A stretch of 63,959 bases of DNA, filler included, from Licmophora abbreviata (taxonomy: Eukaryota), in NCBI GenBank assembly GCA_900291995.1. It is 15 parts of 15 records of this genome, joined end to end, with 100 filler letters (N's around TTAATTAATTAA, not from the genome) between each part and the next. Parts side by side here need not be neighbours in the genome. Positions count along the whole stretch, not along the records: positions 13,495 to 28,950 come from OLMU01001333.1; 14 more parts are not named here. One strand, given 5' to 3'. Below, piece by piece: positions 19,798 through 45,445 of this stretch; the first letter of the stretch is position 1, and each line of letters begins with the position of its first letter. The notes under the pieces are model-generated. The model searched no databases and was not told where the DNA came from. It saw only the letters and a program-made list of their open reading frames with translations. A program made the translations under genes and the position numbers.

Positions 19798-20233
19798 GAC
19801 TGATCAACTCTACTTGTTCCCAGAAAAGTCGCAAAGGAAGCCATGGATAGGGATTCTTGCAGGAAGAGGCGATTCTTCAGAGAGAAAGAGCAGCAAAGAG
19901 ACACATCACCGGTATGGTGTGTCGTTGGCGCGAAGTATGATCGCATCGATCACTCTCCGTCGGAAAGCAGAGCAAACGGTTCGCGCGCAATCGCGGTTGA
20001 GAACGCGCATAATCTGACTCGTGACTCGGGATCGATAGCTCGATGAGCGTGTCACGAATGTTGGATCTTTGTGTTCCGAAAAAAAACCAAAAAACGGCGC
20101 GACGAAGTTCGAAAGTGGTCGACGCCGGACATTCACGAGCATCATGTGAGGATGTCGTTGTGGATGTGAAGCTCATTGCCGTCCCCGCAGTTTCCTTCCA
20201 CAGGCTTTCGAAAGAGAGTTCTTGGAAACAACC

Positions 20234-23200
20234 ATGAACGCTCTTCAGGCAACGAACCGACTTTCGGCCATTCCAGGTGTGAAATCACTGCTGACGAGAA
20301 CGATCGCTTCCATTTCAAATCAGAATGCGGAGGAGGGGTATCTTTCAGACGATAGCACGTTAGAATCTTTGTCCGTAGATAGATCAGACGATACAGACGA
20401 AGATGATAAGCAAGGTGACACTGTAGGTGGTACTAACGGTGATAACGGTGTACTGATGATGTCTAGCTTGGTGGACGAAGACGAGGCTGTTGAAGACCAT
20501 TCGATGATGGACCACACAATTCGGGTTCTTGCTTCCTACGAGAAGAAGAACCCAATGGCCGCGTTAAACGAAAAGTACCAGAAACAGGGACAGGATGGAG
20601 TAAAGGCATGTGTGAAAGACATCGAACACCCTACTGGAAAGGGGCCATCTCTATGGACTTGTGCATTTGCCTGTCCACTTTACGAAGTCGATTATGAATC
20701 TGGCTTTCCAGGATACGCTCTCTTGTCGAGAAAGCGCAGTCGTGTCGCAGCAGCCAAGAAGATGGAACTGGTTCAGTGGACAAAGAAAATTGTGGGAGAC
20801 TATCTTCTTCTGAATCAAAAGGTGCTCTTCATCTCGAAAAATGGCGCGAGGCGGAGTTTGGCGTTATCCGTCCTAGAAAGAGAAACAAACCAATCATCGT
20901 CCTCGCCACCTAGAATTAAGTCTGAAGAGCCGCCCGAAGAATCGCTGATATCGACGCAACCTCCTCCGAAACAGAAGGCTAAACGTCGATTACCTAGATG
21001 GGCATGTCTACTCAGCGAACTTGGAGTAACATCTCAGTCGCTGAAGATTGAGTATGTCGAATCTTTCACTGCCAAGGCAACTCCTGGCTGGACTGGCCAA
21101 CCATCTCTTCTCCGTTGCATCGTGTCTACCAAAGAACCTTATGAGCTGACTGTTGTAGGCAGTCCGCAGCCATCAAAGAGTCTGGCTCTGAAATGTGCCA
21201 TAGACGATCTCGAGCTAACTATTCGGAGACAGGCAAGAGTGGAGAGCTCACCATCGCACACCGGAACCCATGAGGAGCAGCACCGGCTGATGCTCTGCAA
21301 CACAGCCATGACTTGCCTAGCACAGCCACTACCAGAATGGACCACAGCAGAGTTCACACCACCACAACATGGGGAAGAAGAGTACTTTGTGTACGTGTAC
21401 AGGCTCGAGTTCCGAACTGAACAAGGTGACAATTTCGTTGCCCAACGATCTGGTCTTACGATTGACTGCACCACACCGCTTGGAATCATGTTTGCGGTAG
21501 AGTTGGAACCACCAGGTAACTCGGATGCGGTTTTCGAGTCTCAGTTCTCCGTTCCGAATAAAGGCTCTCCTGGTACCGAATCGGTCTCTGTACGGATGCG
21601 GCGTTGTTGCGCGTTAAATCTTGCAGAAGATGGCGCCGATGCCGCAACTAGCATTCGACGTACCAAACAGTTCAATGCAAAGCTTCAGAACTGGAAAATG
21701 TACGGCTTTGATAGGGACGCAAATCGAACGTCGGCATTTTTGCCACCGCAGACGAGGCCAGATAGCGAAACGGAATCACCACACGCCTTCGATCGGACGT
21801 ATCTGTTCGTTCCGTTGAGGATTGAGAATCTCGATGGTAATGAGACGAGTTGCGTCGACTGGGACTGTATCAATCGCGCATGGATGGAAGAGAAAACCGC
21901 CTTGCTGCAGCCATTTGAAAATGGCTGGAAATCGCCTTTACCGATAGAGTGTGATCTATTGTTTGTCAGCAAAAGTCTTGGGATGACAAGTCTCATATTT
22001 CTGCTGCCTCCGCTCTACGCCATGGCGAAGGAATACCTCACAGGTGATTCGTGTCCTATCACAGATTTTGTAGACTACTGGGAGATATACCTCGGAGCAC
22101 TTCTGCTGCTAATTTCTGTCTTGGGTATTGTGAGCTGGCATGCATGCCCTCCTACCAGGTGTTTCACTTCCGCGAAGCTGAGGAATCGATTCTTGGTACA
22201 GATGGGAGCATGGAACACACTTTATGTACTACAGAATCCCGAAGAGTACGACGGGGGCGACTGTCTGACAGCAAACTCACTCTTTCTAGGCTCTTTCTCT
22301 CAAGAGAAGCCCAGCCCTAACAAATTGAAGCGGGTCAAGGATAGACTTGGTCTAGACCTGTCCACAGCGTCATTCGAAGATTACTATCTGAAGAAGTATG
22401 GATTGGAGCTTCGCTTTCCGACCGAGGCGCTGGTTTCCGCGCAAAACGTCGCCTCACATTCCGCACATGACTTTCTGTTGCGCGACGGAGGTCACAGCCT
22501 CGTGCACATTATGCCAGAGCTTGTTCATGTACTTCCAATACCTCGCGATGTCATGTACATTGTGGATCACGCGAAGGCTTTCATGACAGCACTAGAGAGA
22601 GAAGTTGAGTTGGCACACTTCACGACCCGTATTTGGGACTTCCAACACCTATCGCCGGCACCATCTATCAATCGTGCCATTGCATCGCGACTTCATTCGC
22701 TATTGAGAGAGGCAACTACACTGAATCCCCGACCAACCTATCAGAGACTAGAGTTCCTAGGTGACGCCGTTCTTGGCCACTTTGTCGCTCTCAATGTCAG
22801 CTGCTTACCGATGCTTTTGGACTTTGACGATTGGCAGCGCGCGTTGCTAGCAGCAACCAAGAATACAGTCTTATCCGAGGCTTCTCTCCGAATGGGAATA
22901 GGAAGGTTTCTGCAGAGAGGGCAAAAGTATTGGCGAAGCGCGTATCGACGGAGAACCGGAGACTCACCCGTGCCTATCGATGCAGACGAACAGCTGCCAA
23001 TGACCCTTGTCAGCGACCGCACGATGAGTGACATGGTTGAAAGCCTGCTTGCTGCGACCTTCCTGGCGGGCTACCGATGCGAGAAAGAGGACGAAGCGGC
23101 CGCGCGGTTGACTAGACATGTATTGGAAGCTCTACAACTCCCCCACCCTTCATCGGTTATGGCGACTCCGCAACAACAAGAAAGACACAGGGCTAGAGGA

Positions 23201-24160
23201 GCATGCTTGAAGGCCGGGTACCCATTTGAAATCGACGATGTTTGGGAGCAACGATTCAAGCGTATAGAGGCAGCCCTGCGACCGCGCTCTGCACTGATTT
23301 GCAACTTGAAGGACTCCATCGTAGAACACCATGACGGAGACGGATCAGTCGCAAGAGTCGGCGGTCTGAAGGCTCTATTTCTCGATCAAAGATCCAGGAC
23401 CCTACTCGCGGTTGCGGTATTTGCCAACGCGGAAGAGCTGGACAGAGAAAGTGGATCCACAAATTCGTCTTCGCACGATCCAGAGGTCGGTAGCAGCCTG
23501 GGCGACTTTTCTGCAATCGACAGCGGAAGCGACTCTGAATGCGTCGCCGCGCTACGACTTGTTCTGTACCATGTGGGAGCCTACTCGTTGCAGCTCTGTA
23601 TCACGCACGAACTCTTCCATCGGTTTCCAGAAGCGAACGAGAGCGATCTACACCTCTTACGAGCCTGTGCCATGAGTGACGATGTTGTTGTCTATATTGC
23701 GTCAAAGAGTGAGTTTCGAGCTGGCCTTCACCGTGTGCACGCAAACGCGTTTGACCGTTTCCTCGTGACTGCCGCAGCAGCAGAAGCTATTGGATCCAAG
23801 ATCTGGGACAAGAAAGGCGGCTGGGTCGTTGACGATGGCGCGAAGGTATTCACCCGGCGACAGGCTGCTCACGCCAATCTCGTAGGACGAACCGAAACTC
23901 CAGGCGAAACGAAACCGAGATACGTCGGTCTCGTGGGAGGTCGGCTGCACGGACACAAAGCCAAAGTGCCAGAGAAGATCACATATGACCTCATGTTCAC
24001 AATGAAAGCCATGATTGGTGCAATGGTTCTCTCCCTTGGTCTCGAAAAGACGTGGGAGTCTCTACTCCCGCTATTTGAAGAAGTTATGCTCTTGTCCGCG
24101 CAAGAACTGAGACGAGACTTATCAGAATCGTCGACCCTCGTACGATCGTATCCGCGTTAG
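20234..24160 (+). CDS. DCR: Dicer-like protein (dsRBD-like x2, platform, PAZ, RNase IIIa, degenerate RNase IIIb; no helicase)
   Basis: NPMAALNE dsRBD start; YLFVPL...VDW platform; SFEDYYLKKYG...IMPELV PAZ; YQRLEFLGDAVL and SDMVESLLAA RNase IIIa; HELFHRFPEANESDLHLLR RNase IIIb scaffold. Confidence 0.85.
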   Translation: MNALQATNRLSAIPGVKSLLTRTIASISNQNAEEGYLSDDSTLESLSVDRSDDTDEDDKQGDTVGGTNGDNGVLMMSSLVDEDEAVEDHSMMDHTIRVLASYEKKNPMAALNEKYQKQGQDGVKACVKDIEHPTGKGPSLWTCAFACPLYEVDYESGFPGYALLSRKRSRVAAAKKMELVQWTKKIVGDYLLLNQKVLFISKNGARRSLALSVLERETNQSSSSPPRIKSEEPPEESLISTQPPPKQKAKRRLPRWACLLSELGVTSQSLKIEYVESFTAKATPGWTGQPSLLRCIVSTKEPYELTVVGSPQPSKSLALKCAIDDLELTIRRQARVESSPSHTGTHEEQHRLMLCNTAMTCLAQPLPEWTTAEFTPPQHGEEEYFVYVYRLEFRTEQGDNFVAQRSGLTIDCTTPLGIMFAVELEPPGNSDAVFESQFSVPNKGSPGTESVSVRMRRCCALNLAEDGADAATSIRRTKQFNAKLQNWKMYGFDRDANRTSAFLPPQTRPDSETESPHAFDRTYLFVPLRIENLDGNETSCVDWDCINRAWMEEKTALLQPFENGWKSPLPIECDLLFVSKSLGMTSLIFLLPPLYAMAKEYLTGDSCPITDFVDYWEIYLGALLLLISVLGIVSWHACPPTRCFTSAKLRNRFLVQMGAWNTLYVLQNPEEYDGGDCLTANSLFLGSFSQEKPSPNKLKRVKDRLGLDLSTASFEDYYLKKYGLELRFPTEALVSAQNVASHSAHDFLLRDGGHSLVHIMPELVHVLPIPRDVMYIVDHAKAFMTALEREVELAHFTTRIWDFQHLSPAPSINRAIASRLHSLLREATTLNPRPTYQRLEFLGDAVLGHFVALNVSCLPMLLDFDDWQRALLAATKNTVLSEASLRMGIGRFLQRGQKYWRSAYRRRTGDSPVPIDADEQLPMTLVSDRTMSDMVESLLAATFLAGYRCEKEDEAAARLTRHVLEALQLPHPSSVMATPQQQERHRARGACLKAGYPFEIDDVWEQRFKRIEAALRPRSALICNLKDSIVEHHDGDGSVARVGGLKALFLDQRSRTLLAVAVFANAEELDRESGSTNSSSHDPEVGSSLGDFSAIDSGSDSECVAALRLVLYHVGAYSLQLCITHELFHRFPEANESDLHLLRACAMSDDVVVYIASKSEFRAGLHRVHANAFDRFLVTAAAAEAIGSKIWDKKGGWVVDDGAKVFTRRQAAHANLVGRTETPGETKPRYVGLVGGRLHGHKAKVPEKITYDLMFTMKAMIGAMVLSLGLEKTWESLLPLFEEVMLLSAQELRRDLSESSTLVRSYPR

Positions 24161-25761: not shown

Positions 25762-26012
25762 CGTGCTAGGGAGCTCGAGGACAAGATACTGGCTGTTGCT
25801 GCGAGGACGACCAAGCCAGCGGCCATGGTCGTATCGCCGATTGTGTCGAACTTTTGATGTTTTGCGAGAGTGTGTGACGTCTTTCTTTTCTGCGAGCTAT
25901 GCTTTATGTTTTCGACTCGAGTAACTCGCCTAAAATGTAGCATGGCGGGGTGCACCATGGTGCCACTTTTCTGATGTGAGACCCCGCCGTTTCTGTTCTG
26001 AAGCTTTCATTC

Positions 26013-27203
26013 ATGTTAACCTTCTCGTTGGCTCATCATAGCTTGCTTCTCACAGCAACTACTACAACGCTGTGGAGCTTTTCTCGTGCCATGTCGTCTT
26101 CTAAGAATGTTGCAGCCGTTGCCCAGCTGTGCTCGACCAGCAACAAGCGATCCAATCTGATTGCCGTTGCGCACTGTGCATATCTTGCGACACAACAAGA
26201 CGCGTCCATGCTTTTTCTCCCCGAATGTTTTGGGTACCTGGGGACGAGTTCCCAAGAAACTGTGCAACAGGCGGAACCTGCGATGGGAGAGACTGTCGCT
26301 CCGAACGATGCAAGAATTTCCAAGCTCCTCGCTTCCGTCGTCCAGCATGGCATGTATGACACGGATGGCACGCAAAAGCAGACCAATCCGGAGGAATCGT
26401 TAACGCCAATATCTTTGCTACATGGCCTTCAGGTCATTGCCCAGACCAGTGGGCTCTGGATTTCTGGCGGGGGCATGCACGAATCGGGCGCTCCCAATGG
26501 ACGGATTTACAATACACATGTTATATTGGACAACACGGGAACGATTCAATCCCATTACCACAAATCGCACCTATTTGATGTCTCCATTCCTCAGCACAAG
26601 GTTCACTTGCAAGAAAGTGCGACTACAGCGGCGGGGGAGCGACTAGTAGTCTGCGACTCACCGTTGGGACGTTTGGGTCTATCGACTTGCTATGACGTAC
26701 GATTTCCCGAGGTCTATGCCGAACTGGTAGAGCGGGGAGGAGCCCAGATTCTCCTGGTGCCATCTGCCTTTACAGTGCCTACGGGAAAGGCACACTGGCA
26801 CGTCCTGCTACGAGGTAGGCTATGCGCTACATTAGTCATATCATCATGGTGGATGGCGCCGACACTTCGTTCAACCCTAACACGATCGCTCACTGCCATC
26901 ACATACTTCTCTACTCCCTATTCTTATCTAGCCCGCGCCATTGAAACTCAGTGCTACGTCCTAGCAGCCGCACAGTGTGGTCGTCATAATTCAAAGCGTG
27001 AAAGCTACGGTCATAGCCTGGCTGTGGATCCGTGGGGAACCGTGGTGGCGGACGCGACTAACACCGCTGCCCCAAGTATTGTCTCGTGTACCATTGATTT
27101 GGGAAACGTCGATTCGATTCGGGAGCGCATGCCGATTCAGCGTCATCGCCAGGCGGCGGGAACGCTATCTGTGCAAGCGCATAATGGAAAAGAGGCTTTG
27201 TGA
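26013..27203 (+). CDS. NIT1: Nitrilase-family Nit1 (deaminated glutathione amidase); probable intron about 26814-26931
   Basis: FLPEC, YHKSHLFDV, CYDVRFPE, PSAFTVPTGKAHW and RAIETQCYV. Confidence 0.9.
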   Translation: MLTFSLAHHSLLLTATTTTLWSFSRAMSSSKNVAAVAQLCSTSNKRSNLIAVAHCAYLATQQDASMLFLPECFGYLGTSSQETVQQAEPAMGETVAPNDARISKLLASVVQHGMYDTDGTQKQTNPEESLTPISLLHGLQVIAQTSGLWISGGGMHESGAPNGRIYNTHVILDNTGTIQSHYHKSHLFDVSIPQHKVHLQESATTAAGERLVVCDSPLGRLGLSTCYDVRFPEVYAELVERGGAQILLVPSAFTVPTGKAHWHVLLRGRLCATLVISSWWMAPTLRSTLTRSLTAITYFSTPYSYLARAIETQCYVLAAAQCGRHNSKRESYGHSLAVDPWGTVVADATNTAAPSIVSCTIDLGNVDSIRERMPIQRHRQAAGTLSVQAHNGKEAL

Positions 27204-27282: not shown

Positions 27283-28950
27283 TCAGGTCTGCGCCTCAAG
27301 TTGATTGTATTGAAGATCGAGACATACACCTCCAAATGGCAGTCCATCCGTTCTTGTAATGTCAAATACTACGCCTTCATCCCGGTAAGCATGGTACATG
27401 TGCCTGTTGTCCGGACTTAGGGCCAGCCCAGCAGTCTGACCCTTGAGTCCTGTCCCCGCAAGGATACTAAAAACGTTGCCGTCCGCATCGCGACCACGTA
27501 CACCGACATTTTCGCCAGCACCTTCCTCAGCAAAATATAAAATATCCTCTTCGAGGCCTCCCCCAAGAGCTCGCTTGACCTGATTAGGCTGTCCTTCAAA
27601 AAGCCCCGAATCCACCGAATACCGTTCGTATGTCATATTCGCTAGATCAAGGATCATCAAAATCCTGGGAGACTTGGCAGTCATATATAGGATACCGTTT
27701 CGAATATCAACACCCATCGAGTATGGATAATGCGTTCTTGCATCATTACCAGCTGCTGACTGATTATCACTGCCGGTCCATGTGAACGTTCCCCGGCTGG
27801 GATCCTCCAGATCGGGGTTTAAGAGAAGGAATTCAATCTTGCTGTCTCCCGTGGTGTGCAGCAACTCGCTGTAATTTCCGCTCTCATTGGCCACGGCGAC
27901 AGCATCATCGTCGGGACTGAACCTGCGCAGAGCTCCCCACAAGTTGTCTTCTGTGACATAAAAGGTTGGATTCTCTGGGTAGGTACGATCGTAGGCGAAC
28001 GATGAGAAAACACCTCCATCCTGCCCCCCGAGTAGGGTCTTTCGTGCACTGGCTTCTCCAAATGGATCAGTTTCCCACACCTGCCCGCCCGCGATTCCTT
28101 CGCAACTTATCCACCTGACGAACGAAACGAAATGAAGAAATGAGATACGAGGCTTCGCCTATGGATCGCGAGGTGGAGGGAGAAAACTTTGTGTCGACTC
28201 ACGTGTTCCACCATGTTTTGCCCCCGCCACTGTTGGCTCGTGTGGCATCTGTAATCATTCCGTAGTTCTCGACTTGACCGCTGCTATCAAAATGAATAAC
28301 ACCGACGCCTCCAGGACTTTCTTGAGAATTGCTCACATAAACCCAGCCCCCGTCTTCTTTGTTGAACGTGGCTCCACCGTCTGGCCGTCCATGAAAATTG
28401 ACTGTGAAGGCGTTGTTGTTGGTATGGCTGACAGGAAGACCCGATCTGGCGATGATTTTGGCCGAAAGCCCAGCGGAGAGAAGTAAGCCTTCTTGCGTTA
28501 CAACGGTCAGATTTCCTGGAAAGTACGCCACGTCGGCGCTCTCCACAGCCTGGTAGCAGTAGTTTGTGCCAGCGACATCCCCGATCATGCCACGAATGCA
28601 TCCTGGGACAGAGGCTGACCCCTCGCGATCGAAGCAAGAAAGTATACCGTCGCAGTCTTCGTCGACGGTGCAAGGTCCTTCGCAGACATTGCAGGGGCTG
28701 GCATCGCTACACGATTCCACAATAGAAAGGGAAATGGCTTGCTCCTCTGAGTAAAATCGGGTGGGGTCATAGGAAGGAATCGCAGAAGGAGAATTCGAAG
28801 GCTCTGTTGAAGGTACGCTCGAAGAGGTTCCAATCATGGAGGGACGGGCTGATTTCACATCCAGACTCGCGGGAGCAGCGGCGATCTCGATCCCCGAAAC
28901 TTTAGGGTTTTCGATCTCCTGCCCAAAGTGAATCGATATCTGACCGTCCA
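27283..28950 (-). CDS. Malectin-array gene E (5' end in gap): malectin, S/P linker, frustulin-type Cys domain, PhoX-fold domain with substituted ligands; intron 28115..28202
   Basis: ENPKVSGIEI malectin end at about 28880-28950. CNVCEGPCTVDEDC...CFDR...VPGC Cys domain. PhoX-like PDGGATF, GGWVYVSNS, GGGKTWWNTWISCE and FYVTED. Confidence 0.75.
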
Positions 28951-29294
28951 NNNNNNNNNNNNNNNNNNNNNNNNNNNNNNNNNNNNNNNNNNNNTTAATT
29001 AATTAANNNNNNNNNNNNNNNNNNNNNNNNNNNNNNNNNNNNNNNNNNNNACTCGAGTTTTGACTTGACTGACTCACTCTAGGACTGACTCGACTCGACT
29101 CACTCGCAATCTGAAGGTCACTCACACAATCACTTTGAATACACTGGCATGATACAGCACTGAGTACGGCACCAATCATATGTACATCAAACTAATGAAA
29201 AATAGGTTGGCTCCCACTGTTACCAGAATGCACCAACATCCAGGACCTACTCCAAAAAGGTCAACTATTAAAACATAACTTTAGAGGCAAGGGA

Positions 29295-32200
29295 TTATGC
29301 ACCAAATCCGAGGATGTATCGATATCCCCCAACGAAAGTGTATGACTCGTTCACTCCAGCCGAGATTGTCACGTTAGATGTTCCGTTACCTGGGGGGAGC
29401 GTGCACACAAGCTTGGAATATGTAACACTACCCACAATAGGACAAAGTACTCCGCCGACTGTCACAGTCGGTGGTCCAAAGGTATCGAAGTTCTCTCCGT
29501 ATATGGACAACTCGTTCCCCCCTAAGTAGCCCCCGCGTCGAGGAAAGACGCTTTTGATTTTCATGAATAGCCACGAAAGCTCGTCAGGCTCGTAGGCGAG
29601 CACCTTGTTCTTGAAATTTTGGGCAACATAAAGGGTTCCATCTGGACCCTGCGTCACGTCCAATCCGCCATCGCTCACAAGCTCTGCAATATTGTTCACA
29701 GTTGCTCTCCCATCACTGGACAGCGTGGCGTCATACAGCGCACCTTGGTATCGTCCAAGAATGAGGTGTCCACGAAGTTGACTGGCAAAATGGTCTCCCT
29801 GGAACTCGACAATTCCCGTGACAGCCCTCTCCAATGTCGCCACATAGTTATCGACATTGTACCAGTCAAATGTGCACTGCCTGGGGTCGCCATTGATGGC
29901 GCGAATCAAATTGGGCGATCCATAGTAGGTGTCTTTCTCAATCAATAGTAGCCTATCGTCGGTATCGGGGTTATTGCCGGAGTCGGAACAGTTCACCAAA
30001 GCGTTTCCATACTCGTTGTTGGGACCGTTGTCTGTACCATAAAGGTGGCCGTTTGAATGAAGCACGATGTCGTATGGGTTTCGCATCCCTGGCGCGAATA
30101 TCTGCACATCAAACCCTGAGACTGGTATTCCATTGCTGTACGTGATATCTCCATCAAAGTTCGGGCTGGTGATGTTGTATGCTACGACCGTTGCTGCAGA
30201 AAAATAATTCTCATCTTGTAAACCAGATTGAGAGACATAGCCTGGAACGCCAGCGTTTGTGTTCCCTCCAATCTGGAGGTACAGTTCCCCGTTGTCGCCG
30301 AACTCTAGTCCATTGACAGCGTGGTCATGATCTGACACAGGAAGACCCGTCACGATGTCCTCCATTACCGTCAGATTGCTTCCGCTCAGTGTACTAATTT
30401 TTGCGTTGTAACTTTGAAGCTGTCCGTGNNNNNNNNNNNNNNNNNNNNNNNNNNNNNNNNNNNNNNNNNNNNTTAATTAATTAANNNNNNNNNNNNNNNN
30501 NNNNNNNNNNNNNNNNNNNNNNNNNNNNAAAGAGATAGCTGTGAGCAACGTAGAGTTTCGGATTCGGTGATGTGTCTAGAGGATCGAAGGCAAGACCAAG
30601 AATAGTCCTTGTTCGATTCATTTCTTCTTCTGATTTGGCGATAACGTCTGACATTATTATGTCGGCTTCAAGCACTTGCTGGTTGTCGTCGAATGTGATC
30701 TTGTAGACATTTCCGGCAACATTCGCTACATACAGCTTCTGATCTGGACCGAAAGTTAGCACACTGGGGCCATAGACGAACGGCATAATGGTATACTTTT
30801 GAAATGCAACGGGCGGGAGCAAATAGTTGACGTACTTGAACGCGACTGCATTGCTTGTGCCCACCGGAGTTTGGATCGACACGTCCACTTCTCCAAGGAA
30901 GTTGCTTGGGAATGAAATGATCTTGAGGTGCGTGGCGTTGATGATTTCGATTTGTGACGGACCGGTTAGATTGTACTGACCAAATCGAACGATAGTTTCA
31001 GTTTCGTTGACGGTGAAGCCTGCGCCTTCAATCACAACTGAATCTCCTCCTGAAACGTCACCGTCGGGTGGTATCAGATAAGCAATAGCTGGGAACCCGA
31101 AAGGCCGCACCGTCACTGTAGTAAAATCCTGATGCACGTCACCGTCCGTGTCTTCCACTTCCAATATGAGGGTATGATTTCCTACTCCGAACGGTATGTT
31201 TGCGACAAGGCCCTGAGCCCTTTCCAGGCCATTCACAATCCATCGCGCGCTCCGAAGGGTAGCCCCTGGACCATGGGTGTGCGAGAACGTTCCGTCGACA
31301 AAGATGGTTTCAAAGCCGTCGTTGTCCGTATCGGTATCCAAATAAGGCCCGCCTGGAACAGCATGAGCGTAATGACCAACGATTGCAATCTGAATACCAG
31401 AGATCTTAGGGTTTTCAATAACAGCTTGGAAACCAATTGTAAGACTTTCGTCAATCACCCGAACCGAAATTATCTTTTCCATTGCGGTGTAGGCACCACC
31501 AGCTTCGGCAAAGATGTCCAAATTGACCAACTCTACCGCTTCCTCGCAAGTAACATTGAAAACACGTTTTCCGATGTCGTCGATTCGGAAGAAGATTTCT
31601 GCAAAATGAAGCGTAACCTCGTAGTCGCCGTTTGGGACGGGAATTTCAAAGCTAAGATCAGAGCCCCACCTTTCGGACTGATAAATTAGTGGGTCGCTCG
31701 TTGAGGCTATTTCGTTGTTTGTTGAGCCTTGGCCACCATTGATATTGTAGCCATCTGCCTCCCATGTTGTTCCCGTTTTATCGATGAAGGATGGTCCGCC
31801 GACGTTGATGTGGTACGGCGAGAAAGGGATGTCCGCGGAAGGAGCTTGGGAGGGTTGTACGGACGGGGACAGAGAAGGCGCTACTGATGTAGACGGCCCA
31901 CTAGTAGGAGCCATCGACGGTTCCAGCGAAGGCGACATGGACAAGGATGGGGCAGGTGATCCCATGGAGATCGGAGGGCTTGAGGCAAGTAGCGCCGGCA
32001 AGATCTGAATCGCCGAAAGCTTTGGATTCTCAGTCACTTTCTCAAAGGACACTGTGAGTCGGCTGTCCGAAACAGTCACCGTTTGGGTTACATTCCAGGC
32101 AGCGTATCCTCCCACTTCTTCGAAGATGTCAATATTGTCAATACGAGCCAGTCCCTCCTCGAGTAAAACGTTGAACACCCGAGCTCCGATGAACTGCGTA

Positions 32201-35200
32201 CCAAAGTAGATCTCGGCGAAAAGCAAGGAGACCTCATAGTCGCCATTGGTGATTGGAAAATCAAAGGAGAGACCATCTCCATAACGCTCTGTCTGAAACA
32301 AATGGTCATCGTCCGTCCCAGAGATGGGTTGAAGAACGGAATCGAGGCCACCCTCTTGGTTGGAGTAGCCGTCTGCCTCCCAATAGTTCCCCGCCAGATC
32401 AATATGCGCGCCACCACCAACGTTCACCCGATATGAGTTTGGTGCCTGAGTAGGAGCTTGGGAAGGAGCCAAGGAAACAGAAGGACCGAGGGAGCCACCC
32501 GATTGCCCCGTTGGGACACCCACCGCTGTAATCTCGATACCAGACACTTTGGGATTTTCCTCTTCCTTGCCAAAAATGATTGACACGAAATTGTTGGTAA
32601 CTATTGCGCTTGTCGCTATCACGTACGGCGCGTAGCCTTTGACTTCCTTGTAGATGTCAACGTCATCAAAAACTAGCTCATCCTGAATTGATATATTAAA
32701 GACGCGATTTCCGCTTCCCTGGGCCCCTGAAAAAATCTCAGCAAAGTGAAGTCTAATGAGGTAGTTGCCGTTGGGGACAGGGATGGAGCATTGTAGATCG
32801 GGATCCCAGCGGTCAGATTGGTACAGTGGATAATCAATAGTGTTGATATTCTTGATGATGTTGGATGTTGTGTCAGTAGAGCTCTCGGGGTTGAAGAACT
32901 GGTCACCAGCCCAGCTATTGCCATTAGAATCCAAAAAAGCAGATCCGCCCGCGTTGATACGGATCGGGTTGAACGGGGGCGTCGTCTCGTCTGTCTCAAT
33001 CGACGGTGCAACAGACCCACTAGACTGTACACTTGGGACCAGGGAGGGAAACTCCGATAAAGAAGGAACAACACTCGGAAGGCTTGAGGGGGGCGCTCCA
33101 GTGAGTGTCGAGGGGGAAGCAGACGAACTTGGCTTTGTGCTGGGTATGCTCGATTCTACCTTTGTCGGAACATGAGAAGGAAAAAGNNNNNNNNNNNNNN
33201 NNNNNNNNNNNNNNNNNNNNNNNNNNNNNNTTAATTAATTAANNNNNNNNNNNNNNNNNNNNNNNNNNNNNNNNNNNNNNNNNNNNTGATGGTGAAAGCG
33301 ACGGATCACTTGACGGCAGCACAGACGCGGAAGGCTCGATCGTAGTCTTGGGAGGCGTCGTGGGAGTCGTGGACGGAGAGTTTGACCGTGATGGACCTTG
33401 AGTCGAACCCGAGGGCAGAGTAGCGATAGCATGAACTTCTATGGCACTGATCTTCGGGTTGTCCTTGCCTTCGATGTGAAAAAACTCAATTGACACCTCT
33501 CCGTTCTCTACTGTCGTGTTAAACTCCTTTATCAAGGCAGTATTCGGTGAGAATACTTCAGAAACAATGTCAAAGCTCTCCAACACCAGGGTACCATCGA
33601 TTGACACACTAAAGACGCGAAAGCCAGCCGTAGACGCATAGATCTCAGCGAAGTGCAACTTGACCTGGTAGTCCCCGTTTGGGACCGGGACTCGATACTC
33701 CATTCGTGGCGCGTCTGAATCATCCCACCTCTCGGACTGGTATATCACGGAGTCGTCGGTCCCTGTAATGTCAGCCACCGTCGATTCGACATTTCCTGTG
33801 TTGTAGTAGTCGAGAAACTCGTCCGAGACCCACACGACACCATTAGCGTCCGTGTAGTTGGCTCCACCGGCATTGATGTAGATCGACTCAACCGGACTAG
33901 AAGAAGATGGACTTGCAGATTCCGATGGCACCGTCGATGGTGCAGCTGATTTGGACGGGCCTGGCGTTGAAGGTTGAGGGGTAGAATGCAGAGCAAGAGC
34001 GTGAACCTCGATCGCACTGATCTTAGGGTTGTCCTTCCCGTCGTTATGCAAGAACTCAATGGGAAGCTCCTTCTCGGTGACAGTCGTATTGAACTCCTTA
34101 ACAATCGCTGTGTTCCGAGCTACCTCCGAGAGAATGTCGAAATTCTCCAGAACCATTGCCGTGTCGATCATCACGTTGAACACACGAAAGTCTTCGTCGA
34201 AGGCGTAGATCTCGGCAAAGTGAAGCTTGACTACGTAGTCTCCGTTGGGGACAGGGATTCGATACACCAGAATCGGAACTCCATCGGGATCCCATCGGTC
34301 CGACTGATACAAGACGTCGTCTGTCGTGTCCGTGATCTCTTTCTTGGTGGAGTCGGTGAGGCCAACACTGTTGTGGTAGTTGTAGTCCTCATCCGAGACC
34401 CAGACGTTGCCATCACCGTCGGTGTAGTTGGCTCCACCTGCATTAATGTAGACGGAATCAAACGAGACGGGCGTATCACTTGATGGGGCGGCCGACGGTT
34501 CAGCAGTCGGTATCGTGTCGTCTATCCGGTGAATCTCAATCGCGTTCACTTTCGGATTCTCGAGAAGATGGATGAACTTGATCAGCACTTCCTCTCGGGT
34601 CACTGTCGTGGTGAATTCCTTGACAAGGGCTGTATTGCGACCCACCTCAGCGAGAATATCAAAGTCCCTTAGCACTGTGAGACCTCCTATGACCACATTG
34701 AAGATGCGCTGACCAGGCTGTGTTGCGTATATCTCGGCAAAGTGTAACTTAACTCGGTACAAGCCGTTGGAAGCAGGAATGCGATATGTCAGTACTGGAC
34801 TATCGTCAAGGTCCCATCGATCCGTCTGGTAGAGCTCGTCATCTGTTGTACTGGTAATTGGGTCATCGGTGGAATCCGTGAATCCGGTATTGTAATATCC
34901 GTAATCTCTATCTGCAACCCAGAGATGGCCGCCTCCGTCAGTGTAGTTGTCACCGCCAACATTGATGAACACCGACTCAAACATGATAGCAGACGATGGA
35001 GCCACAAGCATGGATGGCGTAAAAGAAGGAAGTTCGGATACGGAAGGGATATTCGATGCCGAAGCGACATGAGATGGCTCGTCCGATGGTAATGCAGATG
35101 GAACGGNNNNNNNNNNNNNNNNNNNNNNNNNNNNNNNNNNNNNNNNNNNNTTAATTAATTAANNNNNNNNNNNNNNNNNNNNNNNNNNNNNNNNNNNNNN

Positions 35201-35922
35201 NNNNNNTAATATCCGTAATCTCTATCTGCAACCCAGAGATGGCCGCCTCCGTCAGTGTAGTTGTCACCACCAACATTGATGTATATGGGGTCGAATTCAG
35301 GTGTCATGATTGTTGCTGCCAATGATGGAGCACTGGATGGCTGGGTTGATAAGGATGGTGAAGAAGTAACCAGCTCCAGCAGCTCATGGATTTCAATTGC
35401 ATTGATCTTGGGATTTTGCTCGCGGCGGAGAAGTCGAATGAGCAACTCGCCACCAGTCACAGTTGTATTGAATTCCTTCACAAGAGCCGTTTCCCGGGGC
35501 ACCTCGAACAGAATGTCAAAATCTTCAAGCACCAAAACGTTTCCAATGCCGACACTGAAAATACGAAAGCCTATAGCAAAGCCATAAATCTCAGCGAAAT
35601 GCAGTTTGACTTGATATTCGCCGTTTACCACTGGTATGCGATACTCCATCTCCGGAGCATCCGGAGGATCCCACCGATCCGTCTGATAGAGAAGATCGTC
35701 GGTTGTCCCTCCTATGGGAGCGCCCGTGTTATCAAGAAGCCCTGCTCCATCATGATAGTCATAGACTGTGTCGGCCACCCAGAGATTCCCGACCCCGTCC
35801 GTATAGTTCTCCCCTCCAGCATTTATGTAGATTGACTTTCCGGCGACGAGAGCACTTCCAGGAACAACTGCGCTCAGAAACAGAACCATCACCGCGAGCG
35901 ATGGTAGGCTGAAGTCGGCCAT
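29295..35922 (-). CDS. Malectin-array gene A: signal peptide, at least 8 malectin domains, PKD-like, IPT/TIG, GSDH-like beta-propeller, IPT/TIG (spans 3 gaps)
   Basis: Repeated INxGG...W.AD...LYQ.[DE]RW...Y.V.LHFAEI...RVF...NPK[IV]..IE units separated by S/T/P linkers. HAVPGGPY PKD-like segment; GMRNPYD and DNGPN propeller motifs. Joining across the gaps is inferred from domain continuity. Confidence 0.78.
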
Positions 35923-36363
35923 CCTAAAACGCTCGGTAAGGCTAAGATGTGTTCTTGAGTCTGTTCTGAGAATTCGATGACATCCTCCAACTGTGATGTT
36001 GTTGAACAAGCCCCTCGATGACTCGAAATCCGCACACACGATGACTTCAAAAGAAATATGATAATGACCGCCTGTGATCGATGAAAATCAAGAGTTTCAG
36101 GCCACTGAATGTAATCTTCAGGTATAAATACAATTTAATTCTGTCTCTTTGAGCTTGCATCGGAGTTGCGTCTACATGAATGAGTATGAAACAACTCATA
36201 ATCAGAAACAAATGCGTTGGGTGAGAATGATAATCGCTCACCTTGAGGCTGAGAAAGCCGGTAGAAAAGTCATATTGAATATTATGAAGGCGTCGGCTGA
36301 GATGTAAGATTGTAAGAGTCCTAGAAGTAAGCTGAAGTCATCACGTACTATAAGTTGATGCCA

Positions 36364-39300
36364 TCACTGCCCCGGTATGTACTTATAGCCCCCTTCCAGT
36401 GTATACGACTGATCTCCGACTGAAACTACAACGTCTGCTTTGCCGACACCTGCTGGTNNNNNNNNNNNNNNNNNNNNNNNNNNNNNNNNNNNNNNNNNNN
36501 NTTAATTAATTAANNNNNNNNNNNNNNNNNNNNNNNNNNNNNNNNNNNNNNNNNNNNCAACGTCTGCTTTGCCGACACCTGCTGGTAGCTTGCAGGTCAA
36601 CTTAGAGTAGCTCACAGAACCTTGCAAAGCACAATTGTTGCCACCAACGGTTACCGTCGGGGTACCAAAGGTGTCGAAGTTTTCTCCATATACGGTCAAT
36701 GGCTTGCCGCCCGCGTAGCCTCCGCGCCTGGGGAAAGTGCTCTTCACCTTCAAGTATAGCCAGCTTGCCTCCGAGGGCGAGTGATAAATGACCTTGTTCT
36801 TGAAGTTCTGCGCCACAAACAGCGTACCATCTGGGCCCTGAGTTAACGAAAGCCCGCCGTCCTCGACCAACATGGCGACGTTGTTGATGATTGATTCACC
36901 ATTTGGTGTGAGTTTTACACTCCATAGCTCTCCTTGATACCTCCCAAGGATGATGTCGCCGCGCATTTGTCCACCAAAGTGATCGGTTTGAACTCAATAA
37001 TTCCATTCATAGAGGCTTCGAGCAGTGCGATGGGTGCGCTGTACACGTCATCATCCGGCTCATCGGTTGCCCGATATCGACACTGCCGGGGGTCACCAAA
37101 CTGTCCCCGCAGACGATTAGCATGCCCGTAGTATCCATCCTCAACGATGAGATTCAACTCATCGCCAAAGTTGGGATTGAACCCGGATGAAGTGCACGTT
37201 GCGGAGGAGGGCCCGTATAGATTGTTTGGTCCATTGTCGGCCGCATACATTTTTCCGTTTGAATGCAGCATGATGTCGTAAGAGTTTCGCTGACCAGATG
37301 CAAACACCTCGACGTCGATTCCTGGTAGCGGTAGGCCGTTCTGATCGTACGTGATCTGACCATTGAAGCTAGCGCTCCCAATATTACGGGCAACAAGAGT
37401 GGCAGCGGAGAAGTAACCTTCCTTTTGTTTCCCGCTGGCCGAAAGCTCTCCTGGAACGCCGGCGTTTGTGTTTCCTCCGACCTGAATGTACATTTCGCCG
37501 TTGTCGCCAAATATCATGCCATTCACACTGTGATCATGATCTGAAATTGGTAGCCCGGTGATCACATGATTTAGAACATTGAGATTGGCACCGTGCAGTG
37601 TACTGATCTTTCCGTTGTAGNNNNNNNNNNNNNNNNNNNNNNNNNNNNNNNNNNNNNNNNNNNNTTAATTAATTAANNNNNNNNNNNNNNNNNNNNNNNN
37701 NNNNNNNNNNNNNNNNNNNNATTGGCACCGTGCAGTGTACTGATCTTTCCGTTGTAGCTTTCAAGTTCTCCATGGAACAGATAGCCATGCGAGACATACA
37801 CGCTTGGGTTAAGTTTTGTATCAAGGGGATCAAAAGTCAATCCTAAGATGGTCCGGGTAATGTTTGGTTCGGATCGGGCAATTTTATCCGATGTCACACT
37901 TTCAATTACCTGATACTGATCGTCCAACGTCAGCCTATGGACGATCCCTGCGACTGTGCCGACATAAAGTCGGCCGTCAGGCCCAAAACTAATGCAGCTG
38001 GGTCCGTACAGGTCGGGAATACCATCGTACGGCAGAACATTTCCTTTCACGAAGGAAACAGGAGGCAGTCGGAAGTTGATATACTTGTATGCCATAACAT
38101 TGCTTTGTCCGATCGGGGTGGTCACATAGATGTCCACTTCACCGGCCAGGTTTTCTGGAGCTTCGATTTCGATGGTATTGCTGTCGATGATGTTGAGATC
38201 TGAGCCGGTTAGCTCATACAAGCCAAACTTTACTTTGGTCTGGGCTGTACTTGCTGTGAACCCTGCACCCACGATCCGAACAATTTCGCCTCCGGCAACA
38301 TCGCCATTATCTGGCTCCAAGGTTGAGATATCTGGATATCCAAACGGTCGAATTGTCACTGTTGTAAAGTCCTGGGAAACACTTCCTTGTGTATCTTCCA
38401 CTTCCATCACCAGCGTGTGGACGCCTACAGGGAAGGCGATAGAAGTTAGAATGCCTGTTCCCTTCTCTTTTCCATTAAGAAGCCATCTCGAGTTCCGAAG
38501 ACTCGCCCCGGGACCATGTGTGTGAGAGAAAGATCCGTCCAGCGCGACAGTTTCAAACCCATCATTGTCAGTATCCGTCTGCATGTAAGGTCCGCCAGGG
38601 ACAGCGTGTGCGTAGTGCCCAATAAGATCAATCTCAACACCCGAGATCTTCGGTTGATCGACGATTGACTCAAATGAGATAGTTAGTGCCTCATCGGTGA
38701 CCCTCACAGACTTTACAGAACTCCATGCCTTGTAGGCTCCACCTGCCATTTTGAACGGATCGACGTTTTCAAGTTCCAGAATGTCCTCCATAAAAACATT
38801 AAACACTCTCTCGCCTTCATCATCAACTTTGAAGTAAATCTCGGCAAAATGAAGGGTAACCTCGTAGTCCCCATTTGGAACAGGAATATCCAAACGCAGG
38901 TTGCTTCCCCAGCGCTCTGACATGTATAGAAGGGGGTCGTCAGTGTTCTCGATGTTCTCGCTCGTTCTCGTTACACGTCCAGTTCCGTCATTGTAACCAT
39001 CAGCTTCCCAGGTGGTTCCTGTTTTATCGATGAACGATGGGCCGCCAACGTTGATGTGATAAGGCGAGAAACTGATGACTGGTGATGGCGTTCCGATTGG
39101 TGGGCTAGTTTGAAGTATCGGCTGAGGCACCGGCTGCGGTACAGGCTGCGGCNNNNNNNNNNNNNNNNNNNNNNNNNNNNNNNNNNNNNNNNNNNNTTAA
39201 TTAATTAANNNNNNNNNNNNNNNNNNNNNNNNNNNNNNNNNNNNNNNNNNNNCCACCCGCATTGATATAAACTGAATCACCAGCAGGTGCCGGTACAGGC

Positions 39301-39899
39301 TGCGGCACCGGCTGCGGTACTGGGGGAGACCCAGCTGGTAAAAGGATGGCGATCCCCGATATTTTTGGATTTTGCTTTCCTGGGATGCGGATGAGTTCAA
39401 CCGTGACGAACCCAGAGGTGACAGTGGCAGACCCAGTTAGCACCAATGCAGCATCATGTCCCTTCTCAGCGAAGATGTCAAGATTTTGAAAGACTTCTTG
39501 TCCTTGTACCTTCACGTTGAACTTTCGAACATCCGCCTTCTGGGCATAAATCTCAGCAAAGTGCAACTGTACTTCGTATAATCCGTTTGCAACGGGAATG
39601 GTATACTTCAGATTGACTCCATTGTCGACGTCAAAACGCTCGCTCTTATACAGATTCGGGATACTGGTGCCGGAAATTGAGTCTGTCGTGGACCATGAAG
39701 CGCCACCGTTGTTAAAATTGTAAAAGTCATCGGCAACCCACGTAGTTCCCTGACTGTCCGTGAAGGTTTCACCTCCGGCGTTGATGTAAATGACCCCCGC
39801 GCCTTGCGACTGTACAAAGACACTGCTGGGAAACGCAATGCTCCATAGGAATAGGGGGCAAAGCCATAGCGGCCCTAGTCTCGACAAGGCTCGCACCAT
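36364..39899 (-). CDS. Malectin-array gene B: signal peptide, at least 3 malectin domains with PQPV linkers, PKD-like, IPT, GSDH-like propeller, IPT; 1-nt frameshift at about 36990
   Basis: Paralogous to gene A (shares FSPYHINVGGPSFIDKTGTTWEADGYN). Adding one base restores EFQTDHFGGQMRG. Stop at 36364-36366. Confidence 0.78.
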
Positions 39900-40511
39900 G
39901 GTCGGCAGAAGAGTGTTGAGAATGATTGAGTTAGAATGATTGAGTTGTGAGTCTCTCGTCAGTCTTTTTGCTCCCAATGGTGGCAAGGCTTAGTGAAGCA
40001 TCACGCGATATTAGACATCGTCTGAATGACCGTGTGCAACTCCTAAAGTCAAGACGTCTTCGGATCACACAGTTTAAATAAAGAATGATGACTGCGACGT
40101 TTTTAGCAATGTGACGGACCCATTTCTCTCACGAGTGGCACAGATAAATCTCAACTCTCACCATTTTGGAGTACATACAAAATGCGAATGCGGGAATGAG
40201 ATGGCAATTGTTTCGGCCTAATCATCGGAGAATTCTCATTTTTCATTTTTCTGCAACACTTTGGATGAGTCAGCCTCTCTTTCGGCGCATATTCAAGGCA
40301 ACAACAGGTATTCTGACGTTTTCGTGACACGAGCTCCTCTCATCTGAAAAGGAGCTGGTCGTATTCGCTTTGCCGCCTGCACGCCACATCATAAGCGTTA
40401 TAAAGCTTACAAACAAACTCTGTATGGCTCATGGCAACCATCGTCAATACATGATGGCGTTGGGTGTTGAGCATCGGGTTTTTCATTTGACAAGAGATTG
40501 ATTCCTTGACC

Positions 40512-41240
40512 ATGCCGCCTTCTGCTTTATCCCAGCACCAGAAGGAGACTCCGATGGTCTGGCATAGGCCAGCAAGGCCTGATTTTGGCAACTATCTGAA
40601 CCTCGGTGCCGTCGCGTTTCCACCGTGGAAGAGTCGTTGTCTCAAGTCTCTCTTGGGGATGACTGTGGCGCTCTATGTACTGAACCAGAAGCATCTCTTG
40701 CCTCTTGGAATATCCTCTGCAGTCAGCAAAACTCTTTTCTGGCCAACTCTGCCGATTACTGTCTTCCGTAGACTCGGCTCTTGGACTACGGTGGTAGATG
40801 AAACTGTCGTTATGGGAGGGGCTCCGTTCGGCTTCATGAATCTCCCGGAACGTCTGTACAACGACTTTGGAGTACGGGGTATTATCAACATGTGTGACGA
40901 GTACAAAGGTCCACAGCGAAAATATCAGAAACTTGGAATACAGGAACTTCGACTGCGAACGGTAGATCACTTTGAACCGTCCTTATCTGACCTGATACGC
41001 GCCTTTCACTTCATCAGAAAGCACGAAGAAAAGGGTGACAGAGTATACGTTCACTGTCGGGCAGGGCATGGACGGTCGGCCGCTGCTGTCTTTGCTTGGT
41101 TGATGTACAAGAACCCGGGTGTAGATATGGAAGTGCTCAATGCTCAGCTCAGCACCATTCGAAACGTTCGCAGAACCCTGTGGAAACAGTCCAATCTCAA
41201 CGACTTTTACTCGTGGCTGCGTCGCATAAGAAATGTGTAG
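40512..41240 (+). CDS. PTPMT1-like dual-specificity / phosphatidylglycerophosphate phosphatase
   Basis: VYVHCRAGHGRSAA catalytic loop, LFWPTLP, GIINMCDEY and TVDHFEPS. Confidence 0.85.
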   Translation: MPPSALSQHQKETPMVWHRPARPDFGNYLNLGAVAFPPWKSRCLKSLLGMTVALYVLNQKHLLPLGISSAVSKTLFWPTLPITVFRRLGSWTTVVDETVVMGGAPFGFMNLPERLYNDFGVRGIINMCDEYKGPQRKYQKLGIQELRLRTVDHFEPSLSDLIRAFHFIRKHEEKGDRVYVHCRAGHGRSAAAVFAWLMYKNPGVDMEVLNAQLSTIRNVRRTLWKQSNLNDFYSWLRRIRNV

Positions 41241-41304
41241 CTTTCTAATACCGGCGAACGACATGAACAAGTTCAAAAAGTAAGAATGGAACTAGCAGCA
41301 GCCT

Positions 41305-44300
41305 TTACCTCCTCCTAAGTCGAGCTGTCCCTGTCCGAGGTGCAGATGCTCTCTGGGTCTCGTTTTGACTGGTCTCCTTTGGACTAGTTCCGTTTAGACT
41401 GGTTTCATTCTGTGTAATCCTCACAGCTGTATTCGCTGTCAGTGATTCAACCAGAGGCCCTCTGATATACCGGTACCCGCCGACGAGCACATCTGTCTCA
41501 ACCCCAGATATTGTTGCCATCGAAACTGTCACATCCGCTGGTCCAGTCCCAGGAGGAAGAGTGCAGGTCAGCTTTGACGCCGTGATGCTACCGGTGATGA
41601 CGCAATCGAGGCTGCCGACAGATACCGTCAGAGTTCCAAATGCGTCAAAATTCTCTCCATAAACAGACAGCGTTGTGTTCCCGAGCTCACTACCTCGCCG
41701 TGGAAAAATGCTCTTGATCTGAAGTCCTGTCCACGGCTCTTCAAGTGGCTTGTGAAAAATAACTTTCCTCTCCCAGTGCTGCGATACTACAATTGTTCCA
41801 TCTGGGCCTTGTACCAAGTTCAGACCGCCTCCAGGTATCAGGACCTCAGGAGTGGATGCGTTGGTTCCATCGTCAGTCAGGGCTATGTTGAATATTGGTC
41901 CTCCCCACTGTCCGACTAATAGGTGGCCACGAAGTGCCCCACCGAAATGATTCGATTGGAACTCGATGAGGCCATTGCTTGATGAAGGCAAGTCGGCGAT
42001 TCGAGTTGTGTAACCACCACGACTCGTCTCGTTCCTATCTTTGAATCTGCACTGACGTGAATCCGCTTTGCCTCGATTCCGATTTGCATGTCCGTAATAG
42101 CCGCCTTCGACGATTAGATTCAACTTGTCCCCGTGATCCGGATCCGGACCAGTCTTCCTGCAGTTCACAGATTCTAGACCCTGACCCTTGTTTGGGCCAT
42201 TGTCGGTTGCATACAAATTGCCGTTCGAATGAAGAACAATGTCAAAGGAATTCCGCTGCCCAGACGCAAACAGCTGAACGTCTAGCCCAGTCACGGGTTC
42301 TCGGGTTCTCTCGTCGTATGTGATCGCACCGTCGAAGCCCGGCAGCGTGACATTGCGGGCAATTAGCGTAGCGGCAGAGAGCGCCTCTTCCGGCTGTGCG
42401 TGTCCCACGATAGAGAAACCACCACCAATTCCAGCATTCGTCATTCCTCCGTTTTGAATAAATAGCTCGCCAGCGTCGCCAAACTCGAGACCATTGATGC
42501 CGTGGGAATAGTCAGATACGGGCAACCCAGTAATCACATCTGTATACGTCTTCAGCTTCCTTCCGCTGACTATACTGATCTTGCCGACATAAAAGTCCTT
42601 CTTTTGCATGTGGTATAGCCAACTGTGTGAAATGTAGACCTTAGGATATTCTGAAGTGTCCATTGGGTCAAATGCAATGCCAAGAATAGCCCTTTCCGGT
42701 ATACTCGGGTTTGGGGATTTTGGATTTCTCACATTGACGATATTCGAGGTAACATTCTCAATGACACGATATTGGTCGTCCAAAGTCAATTTGTACAGGA
42801 TACCCCCTGTCGTACCGACGTACAGTTTCCCATCTGGACCGAATGCGACACAGGTCGGCCCCTCCACGTCTGCTAGAATGTCCCCAGACGTCCAGTTGAT
42901 TGGAGAATTGAAGTATCGAAACTTCAATTCATTACTAGATTCTGTGGGTGCCTCGCCACTTCGAAACTCGACTTCGCTGCTGTTGACCGAGGCTGGCGTC
43001 TCCACCCGCACAGCTACATCGTTCAGAGGTGGATTCTTCGGCGGACTGAGGGCTTCGATCACAGTCGAATTGACAACCTTTATCTTGGAAGTTCCTGTGA
43101 GGTTCGTTGAGCCAAAATGGACGATGGTTCGGTTCTCGTCGAAAGAGAATCCGGATCCGTAGAGCATCACTTTCTCTCCGCCCACAACAGTCCCCGAAGT
43201 CGGCACCATGGATGTAATCAACGGGAAGCCGAATGGTTTGATGGTCACATTTGTCTCTCGCTCTCCATAGTAGCCGTCGCTATCGATCACCTCCAGCCTC
43301 ACGGTGTGTTCCCCAACGGGCAAGTCTAAGGTCGCAATGAGCGATGTGCCGACGTACACGGGGCCATTTGGGGCGAGGCGCGCCCATCGAGCATTGGCAA
43401 TACTAGCATTGGGCGTGAACGTGTAGGAGAATGAGCCATCAACTCGAACCATTCCAGTACCATTGTCATCCCGGTCAACACCGAAATATGGGCCACCAGG
43501 CACTGCGATGACACGTTCGCCAATTAGGTTGACCTCAATTCCAGAGAGCTTGGGAACCATTTTGATCGACGCGAACGTGATGTCAAGCTTCTGATCCTCC
43601 ACTCTTACCAAAAGAGTCTCGTTGACAGCCTTAAAAAGACCTCCTGCTTCTGAAGCGACGTCAAAATTACCAAGTTCGACTTTTCCTTCGATTGAAACGT
43701 TGAATACTCGACTGACAGTCTTCATTTCGGTGTTGATTTCAGCAAAGTAGAGCGTAACGAGGTAGTCTGCGTTTGGGACGGGAATGCTGTAAGCCATGCT
43801 AGAGCCCCACCGTTCCGTTCTATATAGCGGGGAATCCTTCACTTTTACATTCACAATCTCTTCTGGCGTAGAAAACTTTTCCCCACCCTTTACGAACGCA
43901 TCCGCTCGCCATTTCTGGCCCGTCGAGTCGGTGAACGCCTCACCACCTACGTTGATGTATAACGGCTGGAATGGGAGGAACAGCGGCGTATCGCATCTGT
44001 GACATGTTTCTGGGCACTCGTCGAAAGCATCTTGTCCCGGCTTGCAGAGCTGCTGTTGAACGTCAGGGTTCAAGGCGAGCCAACTACAAGATCTACTTCT
44101 TCGATCGTAGATGAACTTTGTGTCTGGAATATCCACGCAGACATCTGAGCAGACACCACAAGTCTCTCTACAAGCATCCGCAGCACCGGAATCCTTCTGC
44201 TTGCAGATGTTTGCAATTGCTTTGGCATTACGGGACGCCAGAAAAGCACAGCTTCGCTTCTGGCCACGGATAAGGACCGTAGCAGTCGTGTCGTCATCGC

Positions 44301-44400: not shown

Positions 44401-44615
44401 CTTTATGCTCGCTCGTCCCTGATTTCTCGTCGCCCTTTGTACTTGGTTGACTTGACTGACTCTGGACACCGTCCGTGATGCAAAGGCGCTGCAGACCCGT
44501 TTTTGTTGCGGTTGTTGGGTTGCGATGTTCGTGAACCAAAATGTCTTTTCCTACGTTGCGACATGTACAATCACTCTCCAACGGCTCAAAACATCAGATC
44601 AGAGCCAATTTGTAT

Positions 44616-45101: not shown

Positions 45102-45445
45102 GCTATTGGTGACAGATTCGAATCATACGACTACGAGTAACAAACTGACTGACTGACTCGACTCGACTCACTCAGTCGACTTCAACTTTCTCGTACTCCT
45201 TTGCACCCTTTCTAAAACGGCTGAACTACAACTAGTAGTAGTCTCCGAAGACCTACTAGATGGTCGCCCTTCTAACAATTATCACAGCAAAGCAACATGA
45301 CTCAATCGTTAGCAACTAATGTCACCTATCAATCCCATGAAATGTGATATGCATAGCTACCAATAAATCCTTGCACAAGAAGAACGTAGTAGCTACGCAA
45401 ACCACTTGCTGTGCCTTGTGCCTTCAATTCGGGACTATCTGTTAG

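Follow-up and report, generated by a model that had tools for sequence, protein, structure and literature searches.

The alkaline phosphatase PhoX of Pseudomonas fluorescens (PF05787; structures 3zwu, 4a9v and 4alf) is a six-bladed beta-propeller. According to PMC4223295, its cofactor consists of two iron ions, three calcium ions and an oxo group, with a cysteine thiolate bound to Fe3+. PMC5768637 describes an enzyme with ten active-site residues, and PMC11098088 names R385 and D292. The latter also covers Psip1 of picocyanobacteria, an active Fe/Ca phosphatase with a PhoX-like propeller, nearly all PhoX ligands and a lysine in place of R385; Psip1 was compared with our gene by description only. 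Short PhoX-type proteins, found in diatoms and some bacteria, also carry PF05787 and are annotated as DUF839, 'osmC-like' or hypothetical. They are the direct family of the gene reported here, and our literature search returned no assayed member of the short diatom subfamily.

Pseudophosphatases and other pseudoenzymes (STYX, MK-STYX and PTPRU D2; prozyme) form a second group of relevant systems. They keep the fold, have lost catalytic residues and have an active paralog in the same genome. As far as the accessible sources describe them, pseudophosphatases are mostly intracellular tyrosine-phosphatase folds, and none of these descriptions mentions PhoX. Our survey covered listings and abstracts with few subscription papers, and within that scope we found no PhoX pseudoenzyme and no paper joining diatom, malectin and alkaline phosphatase. 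PMC7283521 mentions neither PhoX nor DUF839, and the accessible parts of PMC11677812, PMC12981677 and PMC3478156 contained nothing further on whether such proteins are known. The gene described below most likely works like a pseudoenzyme, a class already known, and is descended from the PhoX family.

Gene structure

The gene lies on the minus strand at 27283-28948 of the window, by which we mean the whole 63,959-nucleotide stretch of Licmophora abbreviata DNA that was analyzed, from a gapped eukaryotic draft. From the gap edge at 28948, its open frame reads down to 28203 and continues, after a predicted GT-AG intron of 88 nt (28115-28202), through exon 2 from 28114 to 27283, where it ends with the stop. 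The visible spliced frame comprises 525 codons without stop or frameshift. From N- to C-terminus, it encodes the C-terminal end of a malectin domain (28880-28948; 76% identity over 21 residues with one of the malectin repeats that Pfam marks in the neighboring gene, pairwise E 4e-8), a linker rich in Ser, Thr and Pro (28712-28879), a Cys-rich repeat that precedes the propeller in the paralog and the ortholog too (28553-28711), and a PhoX-type propeller of 384 residues, which is split between exon 1 (28203-28525) and exon 2 (27283-28114).

The splice join is stop-free and colinear with an intron-less paralog, with no gap at the junction. Among 24 candidate joins that were tried, the family motif was restored by 28202-28115 alone. 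The sequence-only reading had described the open frame and the intron as intact, which holds for the visible 525 codons and the GT-AG join; at its 5' side, the frame enters an N gap at 28951. It had also placed the feature at 27283-28500, whereas the propeller domain begins at 28525. The remaining 5' part, with the start codon, any signal peptide and the full number of malectin repeats, falls into the gap (28951-29050), and a search of the contigs of the same genome returned no second contig matching 28600-28950 that could supply it. In a single sequencing run (share 0.05), which we can only guess to be RNA, coverage fell on 28490-28611 and on part of the neighboring gene, outside the ligand codons and the intron.

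Each gap in the window, such as 28951-29050, consists of two 44-N runs flanking 12 bases that contain stops in all frames and are TTAATTAATTAA in the gaps that were read. This filler is an assembly linker, not biology.

The surroundings contain several further genes. A carbon-nitrogen hydrolase on the plus strand (25980-27203; PF00795, E 4e-48), probably with an in-frame intron near 26816-26931, is convergent with the PhoX-type gene, the two stops being 79 bases apart. On the plus strand at 20150-24160, a frame of 1336 codons encodes a ribonuclease III domain and may represent the 3' portion of a Dicer-like gene. A malectin-rich gene cluster on the minus strand (29295-46183) is broken by gaps, with one copy whole at 41305-44550; at least three of its genes appear to join malectin repeats, IPT/TIG domains and a propeller of the glucose/sorbosone-dehydrogenase type.

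Fold and family

A predicted structure of exon 2 alone (pLDDT 91.5) had its best fold matches in PhoX (3zwu and 4a9v; Z 21.7, rmsd 2.5, 248 residues aligned), followed by the next fold entry at Z 16.0. The full-domain model of the closest paralog (pLDDT 86.7) also matched PhoX best (4a9v; Z 27.6, rmsd 2.6, 346 residues aligned). The gene is thus predicted to encode a PhoX-type six-bladed beta-propeller.

The two exon pieces, scanned separately with PF05787, gave no PhoX match, while the paralog, 58% identical, scored 30.6 bits (cut-off 24). Exon 2 alone had no match in a sequence search of solved structures, and NCBIfam returned no family for the three proteins tested. The nearest ESM Atlas clusters are PhoX-type, with no separate family. 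We collected homologs from the exon 2 search (the best 150 of 636 representatives at E <=0.001) and from two word searches (27 and 38 proteins), in one of which 25 of the 27 proteins carry PF05787. Those homologs that carry names are diatom proteins.

The predicted propeller shares its architecture with P. fluorescens PhoX, but it is shorter (about 385 residues versus 580), eukaryotic, interrupted by an intron, and fused behind malectin and the Cys-rich repeat.

Metal-ligand positions

Part of the PhoX ligand list, and the assignment of residues to iron or calcium, are taken as general background on the PhoX structure. Residue numbers follow P. fluorescens PhoX; C179, E194, E273, D292 and E532 were set by a 67-homolog profile against that protein (E 1e-11), and E90, R385, E387, D479 and D494 were counted along the 4alfA row (PMC5768637 supplement) and then motif-matched. 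Four of the ligand positions (E90, E387, D479 and D494) are therefore mapped by motif only.

The gene has other residues at seven of the nine metal-ligand positions. All codons are on the minus strand: E90Q in an SNSQ motif (28322-28324), C179S in NSGGG (28229-28231), E194G in CEG (28096-28098), E273S in FSS (28003-28005), E387M in YSMG (27715-27717), D479N in PNQ (27583-27585) and E532Q in QTAG (27436-27438). D292 is kept in a TED motif (27946-27948), and the D494 equivalent is still acidic, as a glutamate of FAEE (27523-27525). The equivalents of E193 and D69 are acidic as well, and a lysine conserved in the family is retained (27673-27675). With D292, an acid at D494 and a neighboring Glu in place, one cation site is possible.

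In the profile and motif alignment, the order of the motifs is the same as in P. fluorescens PhoX, as stated in the sequence-only reading. All seven motif changes named in that reading are present, at columns that are at least 90% conserved among 180 homologs. Its claim that TED alone is clearly kept was too strict in view of the other retained acids. The changes lie inside otherwise invariant motifs and align without gaps.

Altogether, 60 columns are at least 90% conserved among the 180 homologs. The gene differs at ten of them, namely the seven ligand positions, the column of PhoX Q550, where a new Arg replaces a conserved Gln (27382-27384), and two others. With the D/E column D494 added, 7/9 ligand positions are lost versus 3/52 other conserved columns (Fisher p 9e-6). 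By a second count, 3/55 non-ligand conserved columns differ; the mean for 148 intact rows is 1.8 (range 0-8).

The position of the phosphate-binding R385 is occupied by Tyr. Arg is not among the common residues of intact rows at this column, and R385 is absent across the whole short subfamily (117 of the 193 intact rows have Asn there), in which the conserved Lys, present in 190/193 intact rows, may stand in for it. Since R385 is absent and no assayed member was found, ancestral phosphatase activity is itself something that we infer. The full ligand set suggests that intact members are phosphatases, as does a bacterial short PhoX-type gene located directly after pstA, pstB and phoU (L026, 749-3912), which has the conserved Lys and no Arg385.

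In the short family, 193 of 211 rows lack no more than one ligand, whether of the full nine or of the positions visible in the row, whereas our gene keeps two. Although it is of PhoX descent, the gene lacks most of the Cys and Glu/Asp set that holds the PhoX cofactor, and it ought not to be classified among the PhoX phosphatases. A fold that is predicted to be kept, with catalytic residues lost in the alignment, is what characterizes a pseudoenzyme.

Intact paralogs and a probable ortholog

In the 13 other scorable copies of the L. abbreviata genome, every visible ligand position is retained, one D-to-E swap apart; in two of these copies, just 4/8 ligand positions are visible. One weak family match was left out of the count (contig C5772, 4-255); it has an internal TGA and is a fragment or pseudogene. 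With these copies in the genome, phosphatase supply need not depend on the altered gene.

The closest paralog (contig C1346, 5284-6696) has all ligands. Contig C1347 (1-3082), which lies upstream and overlaps C1346, encodes a hydrophobic N-terminal stretch followed by three Pfam malectin repeats, as well as several Cys-rich repeats. Judged by this domain order, the paralog is a candidate malectin-tethered phosphatase. Contigs C1333, C1334 and C1343 follow the order of the window, and the paralog is therefore probably located about 50 kb from the altered gene.

Two proteins from another assembly match the altered gene on either side of its intron. P0028 was the best exon 2 match (among the best 150 of 636) and begins with intron-like sequence at the same junction; P0223 was returned by the exon 1 search, is 61% identical, and ends at that junction. 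Both are single members, each on a 5326-base JGI/IMG contig, and from the equal size and matching ends we infer that they sit on one contig. Joined, they are 59% identical to our gene and 58% to the paralog over 374 columns. E90Q and C179S are common to the pair and our gene, at columns that are 99% conserved in intact rows, and the pair additionally has E194N and D292G, while keeping E273, E387, D479, the acid at D494, E532 and the Gln at the Q550 column. When the ligand columns were left out of tree building, P0028 was placed as sister to exon 2 of our gene (SH-aLRT 87; 98 with the paralog). P0223 and P0028 thus probably represent the ortholog, from an independent assembly. The two shared replacements and the shared intron position, which is not found in the intact paralog, indicate that the loss of these first two ligands is old and predates a deep split, with later losses that differ by lineage. 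A scan of metagenome DNA for close orthologs gave 92 pattern matches, of which one was confirmed, as a bacterial gene.

Recurrent ligand loss

We scored 222 rows, of which 211 show at least six of nine ligand positions, leaving out three same-cluster duplicates. Fifteen of the 211, our gene included, lost at least three ligands, three lost two, and 193 lost one at most. Here, E-to-D was scored as loss; it accounts for 14 of the 77 changes in the other 14 ligand-less rows, and excluding such swaps removes P0168. As the sample was drawn by likeness to our gene and favors divergent singletons, 15/211 is not a frequency.

On a tree built without ligand columns, ligand loss maps to nine separate changes, and a single origin of all ligand-less forms was rejected (p-AU 3e-50; 15 rows among 44). 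The eight other lineages are P0135/P0128/P0164, P0152/P0110/P0105, P0165/P0192, P0119/P0168, P0071, P0170, P0074 and P0142. Three of the groups have divergent members (50-70% identical), and one lineage has MMETSP transcript members. Mostly, 7-10 non-ligand columns are altered in the other ligand-less rows, compared with three in our gene, and some of these rows may be decaying.

Lys or Arg at the Q550 column occurs in 7/15 ligand-less versus 1/181 intact rows. When kinship is counted, eight independent pairs are left, with three to four changing in the same way and none in the opposite way. This is not significant (sign test p 0.125), and we rejected the idea that a convergent gain of Lys or Arg proves anion binding.

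These patterns bear on the idea that the protein is an iron-free, calcium-dependent hydrolase of another substrate, like the six-bladed calcium propellers (paraoxonase, DFPase, lactonases). DFPase, Drp35 and the RPA3624 lactonase were close fold matches in the structure search, and Asn ligates calcium in six-bladed calcium-propeller enzymes. E90 is altered in 11/11 and C179 in 13/14 ligand-less rows (five of the E90 changes are to Asp), and the 70% identical P0165 and P0192 have one altered signature in common. The ligands lost and kept in the ortholog correspond roughly to what we take to be the iron set and the calcium set. However, our gene has also lost E273, E387, D479 and E532, which leaves only two acidic positions of nine, and replacements vary among lineages, so that no common new site is visible. 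A calcium-dependent hydrolase fits the ortholog better than our gene, for which we consider it rather improbable.

Selection on the fold

Over 375 codons, comparison with the C1346 paralog gave dN 0.375, dS of about 2.3 (saturated) and dN/dS of about 0.17, a ratio that pools both branches and is compatible with a very recent loss of function. Fourfold sites were identical in 40 of 118 cases. When neutral decay was simulated from the paralog codons, the pattern of our gene (7/8 ligands lost, no stop, at most three other conserved changes) occurred in 0/20,000 runs at each of eight divergences. Together with the ortholog, these results argue for purifying selection rather than decay, in agreement with the sequence-only reading, which had suggested a selected non-catalytic propeller.

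With only the ligand codons freed, the probability of losing at least seven of nine was 0.51-0.73 at 0.8-1.1 substitutions per site. Free drift alone thus accounts for the number of losses, and we rejected positive selection for ligand loss as unneeded. Four of the seven swaps are isosteric, which exceeds the drift expectation (P 0.001-0.016, in a test picked after seeing the data) and points to a packing constraint in the pocket, not to a new function. Of the arguments for a maintained propeller, the earlier one from conservative swaps is the weaker. Purifying selection has thus continued to act on the fold after the ligand positions were set free, and what may replace the ligands is still constrained by the pocket.

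A gene that was maintained for long as a pseudoenzyme, but is now silent, recently dead, or cut at its unseen 5' end, is unlikely. The 5' part does lie in the gap, and the stop of the upstream gene is 244 bases plus the gap away. Yet the whole visible frame is uninterrupted with canonical splice sites, and the simulated chance of remaining stop-free fell to 0.12 once 0.05 substitutions per site had accumulated, and to 0.02 with 0.1, so that any death would have to be very recent.

We give still less credence to the view that the gene is a redundant duplicate, stripped of its ligands by drift, whose pocket has no binding role and which stays folded only to spare the fused malectin protein. The loss number is compatible with free drift, and the propeller is C-terminal to the malectin domain; but for that very reason one stop codon could shed it, two lineages 41% apart nevertheless keep it whole, and the replacements are small and polar beyond drift. 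An assembly or alignment artefact, conceivable in a draft of 7734 contigs, is largely refuted by the gap-free alignment of the altered motifs and by the recurrence of two changes and the intron in an independent assembly.

Proposed function and implications

We favor, with reasonable confidence, a non-catalytic pseudophosphatase of PhoX fold that is kept by selection and probably located at the cell surface, with a neutralized, slightly basic pocket that would bind an anionic group or a partner, or act as a scaffold. Ligand positions are lost and fold positions kept, in a long open frame with a malectin fusion and an intact paralog. We regard it as likely that this is an old binding protein, maintained by selection and encoded beside intact copies in the genome.

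In the history that we propose, a gene for a malectin-tethered PhoX-type phosphatase would have duplicated, and one copy would have gained or kept the intron; this copy would have been without E90 and C179 by the time the ortholog lineage split off. Once the iron site was gone, the lineage of our gene would have lost four further acids. The protein would be secreted, with its malectin domains holding glycans of wall or mucilage. The cluster of two iron and three calcium ions presumably cannot form, and without it the protein would not hydrolyze phosphoesters. Small polar residues, together with the Lys that was retained and the new Arg, probably line the axial pocket. Its most likely ligand would be an anionic group (phosphate, sulfate or carboxylate of a glycan or protein), held there without being cleaved.

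A wider reading is possible, if doubtful as a whole. On at least nine occasions in our sample, members of the expanded PhoX-type phosphatases of diatoms would have become propellers free of iron, with the iron-binding Glu and Cys lost first. Some would keep the calcium half, maybe as iron-independent hydrolases, and the fully stripped ones, our gene included and often with a new Lys or Arg, would be tethered to glycans at the surface, as receptors or traps for molecules that carry phosphate.

Organic-phosphorus use and iron-phosphorus co-limitation are gauged from the number of PhoX copies in genomes and metatranscriptomes, and 10.1101/2025.04.09.648040 treats diatom phoX and psip1 as expression markers. 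Ligand-less copies that score as PF05787 (P0110 with 27.3 and P0152 with 29.5 bits, above the cut-off of 24) would inflate such counts. The paralog, the ortholog and the gene described here form a natural series with nine, five and two ligands kept, in which one could ask how much of the PhoX cluster is required, and which part, and whether an iron-free form binds or turns over phosphoesters. If the pocket binds without cutting, the protein would be a candidate extracellular sensor or trap.
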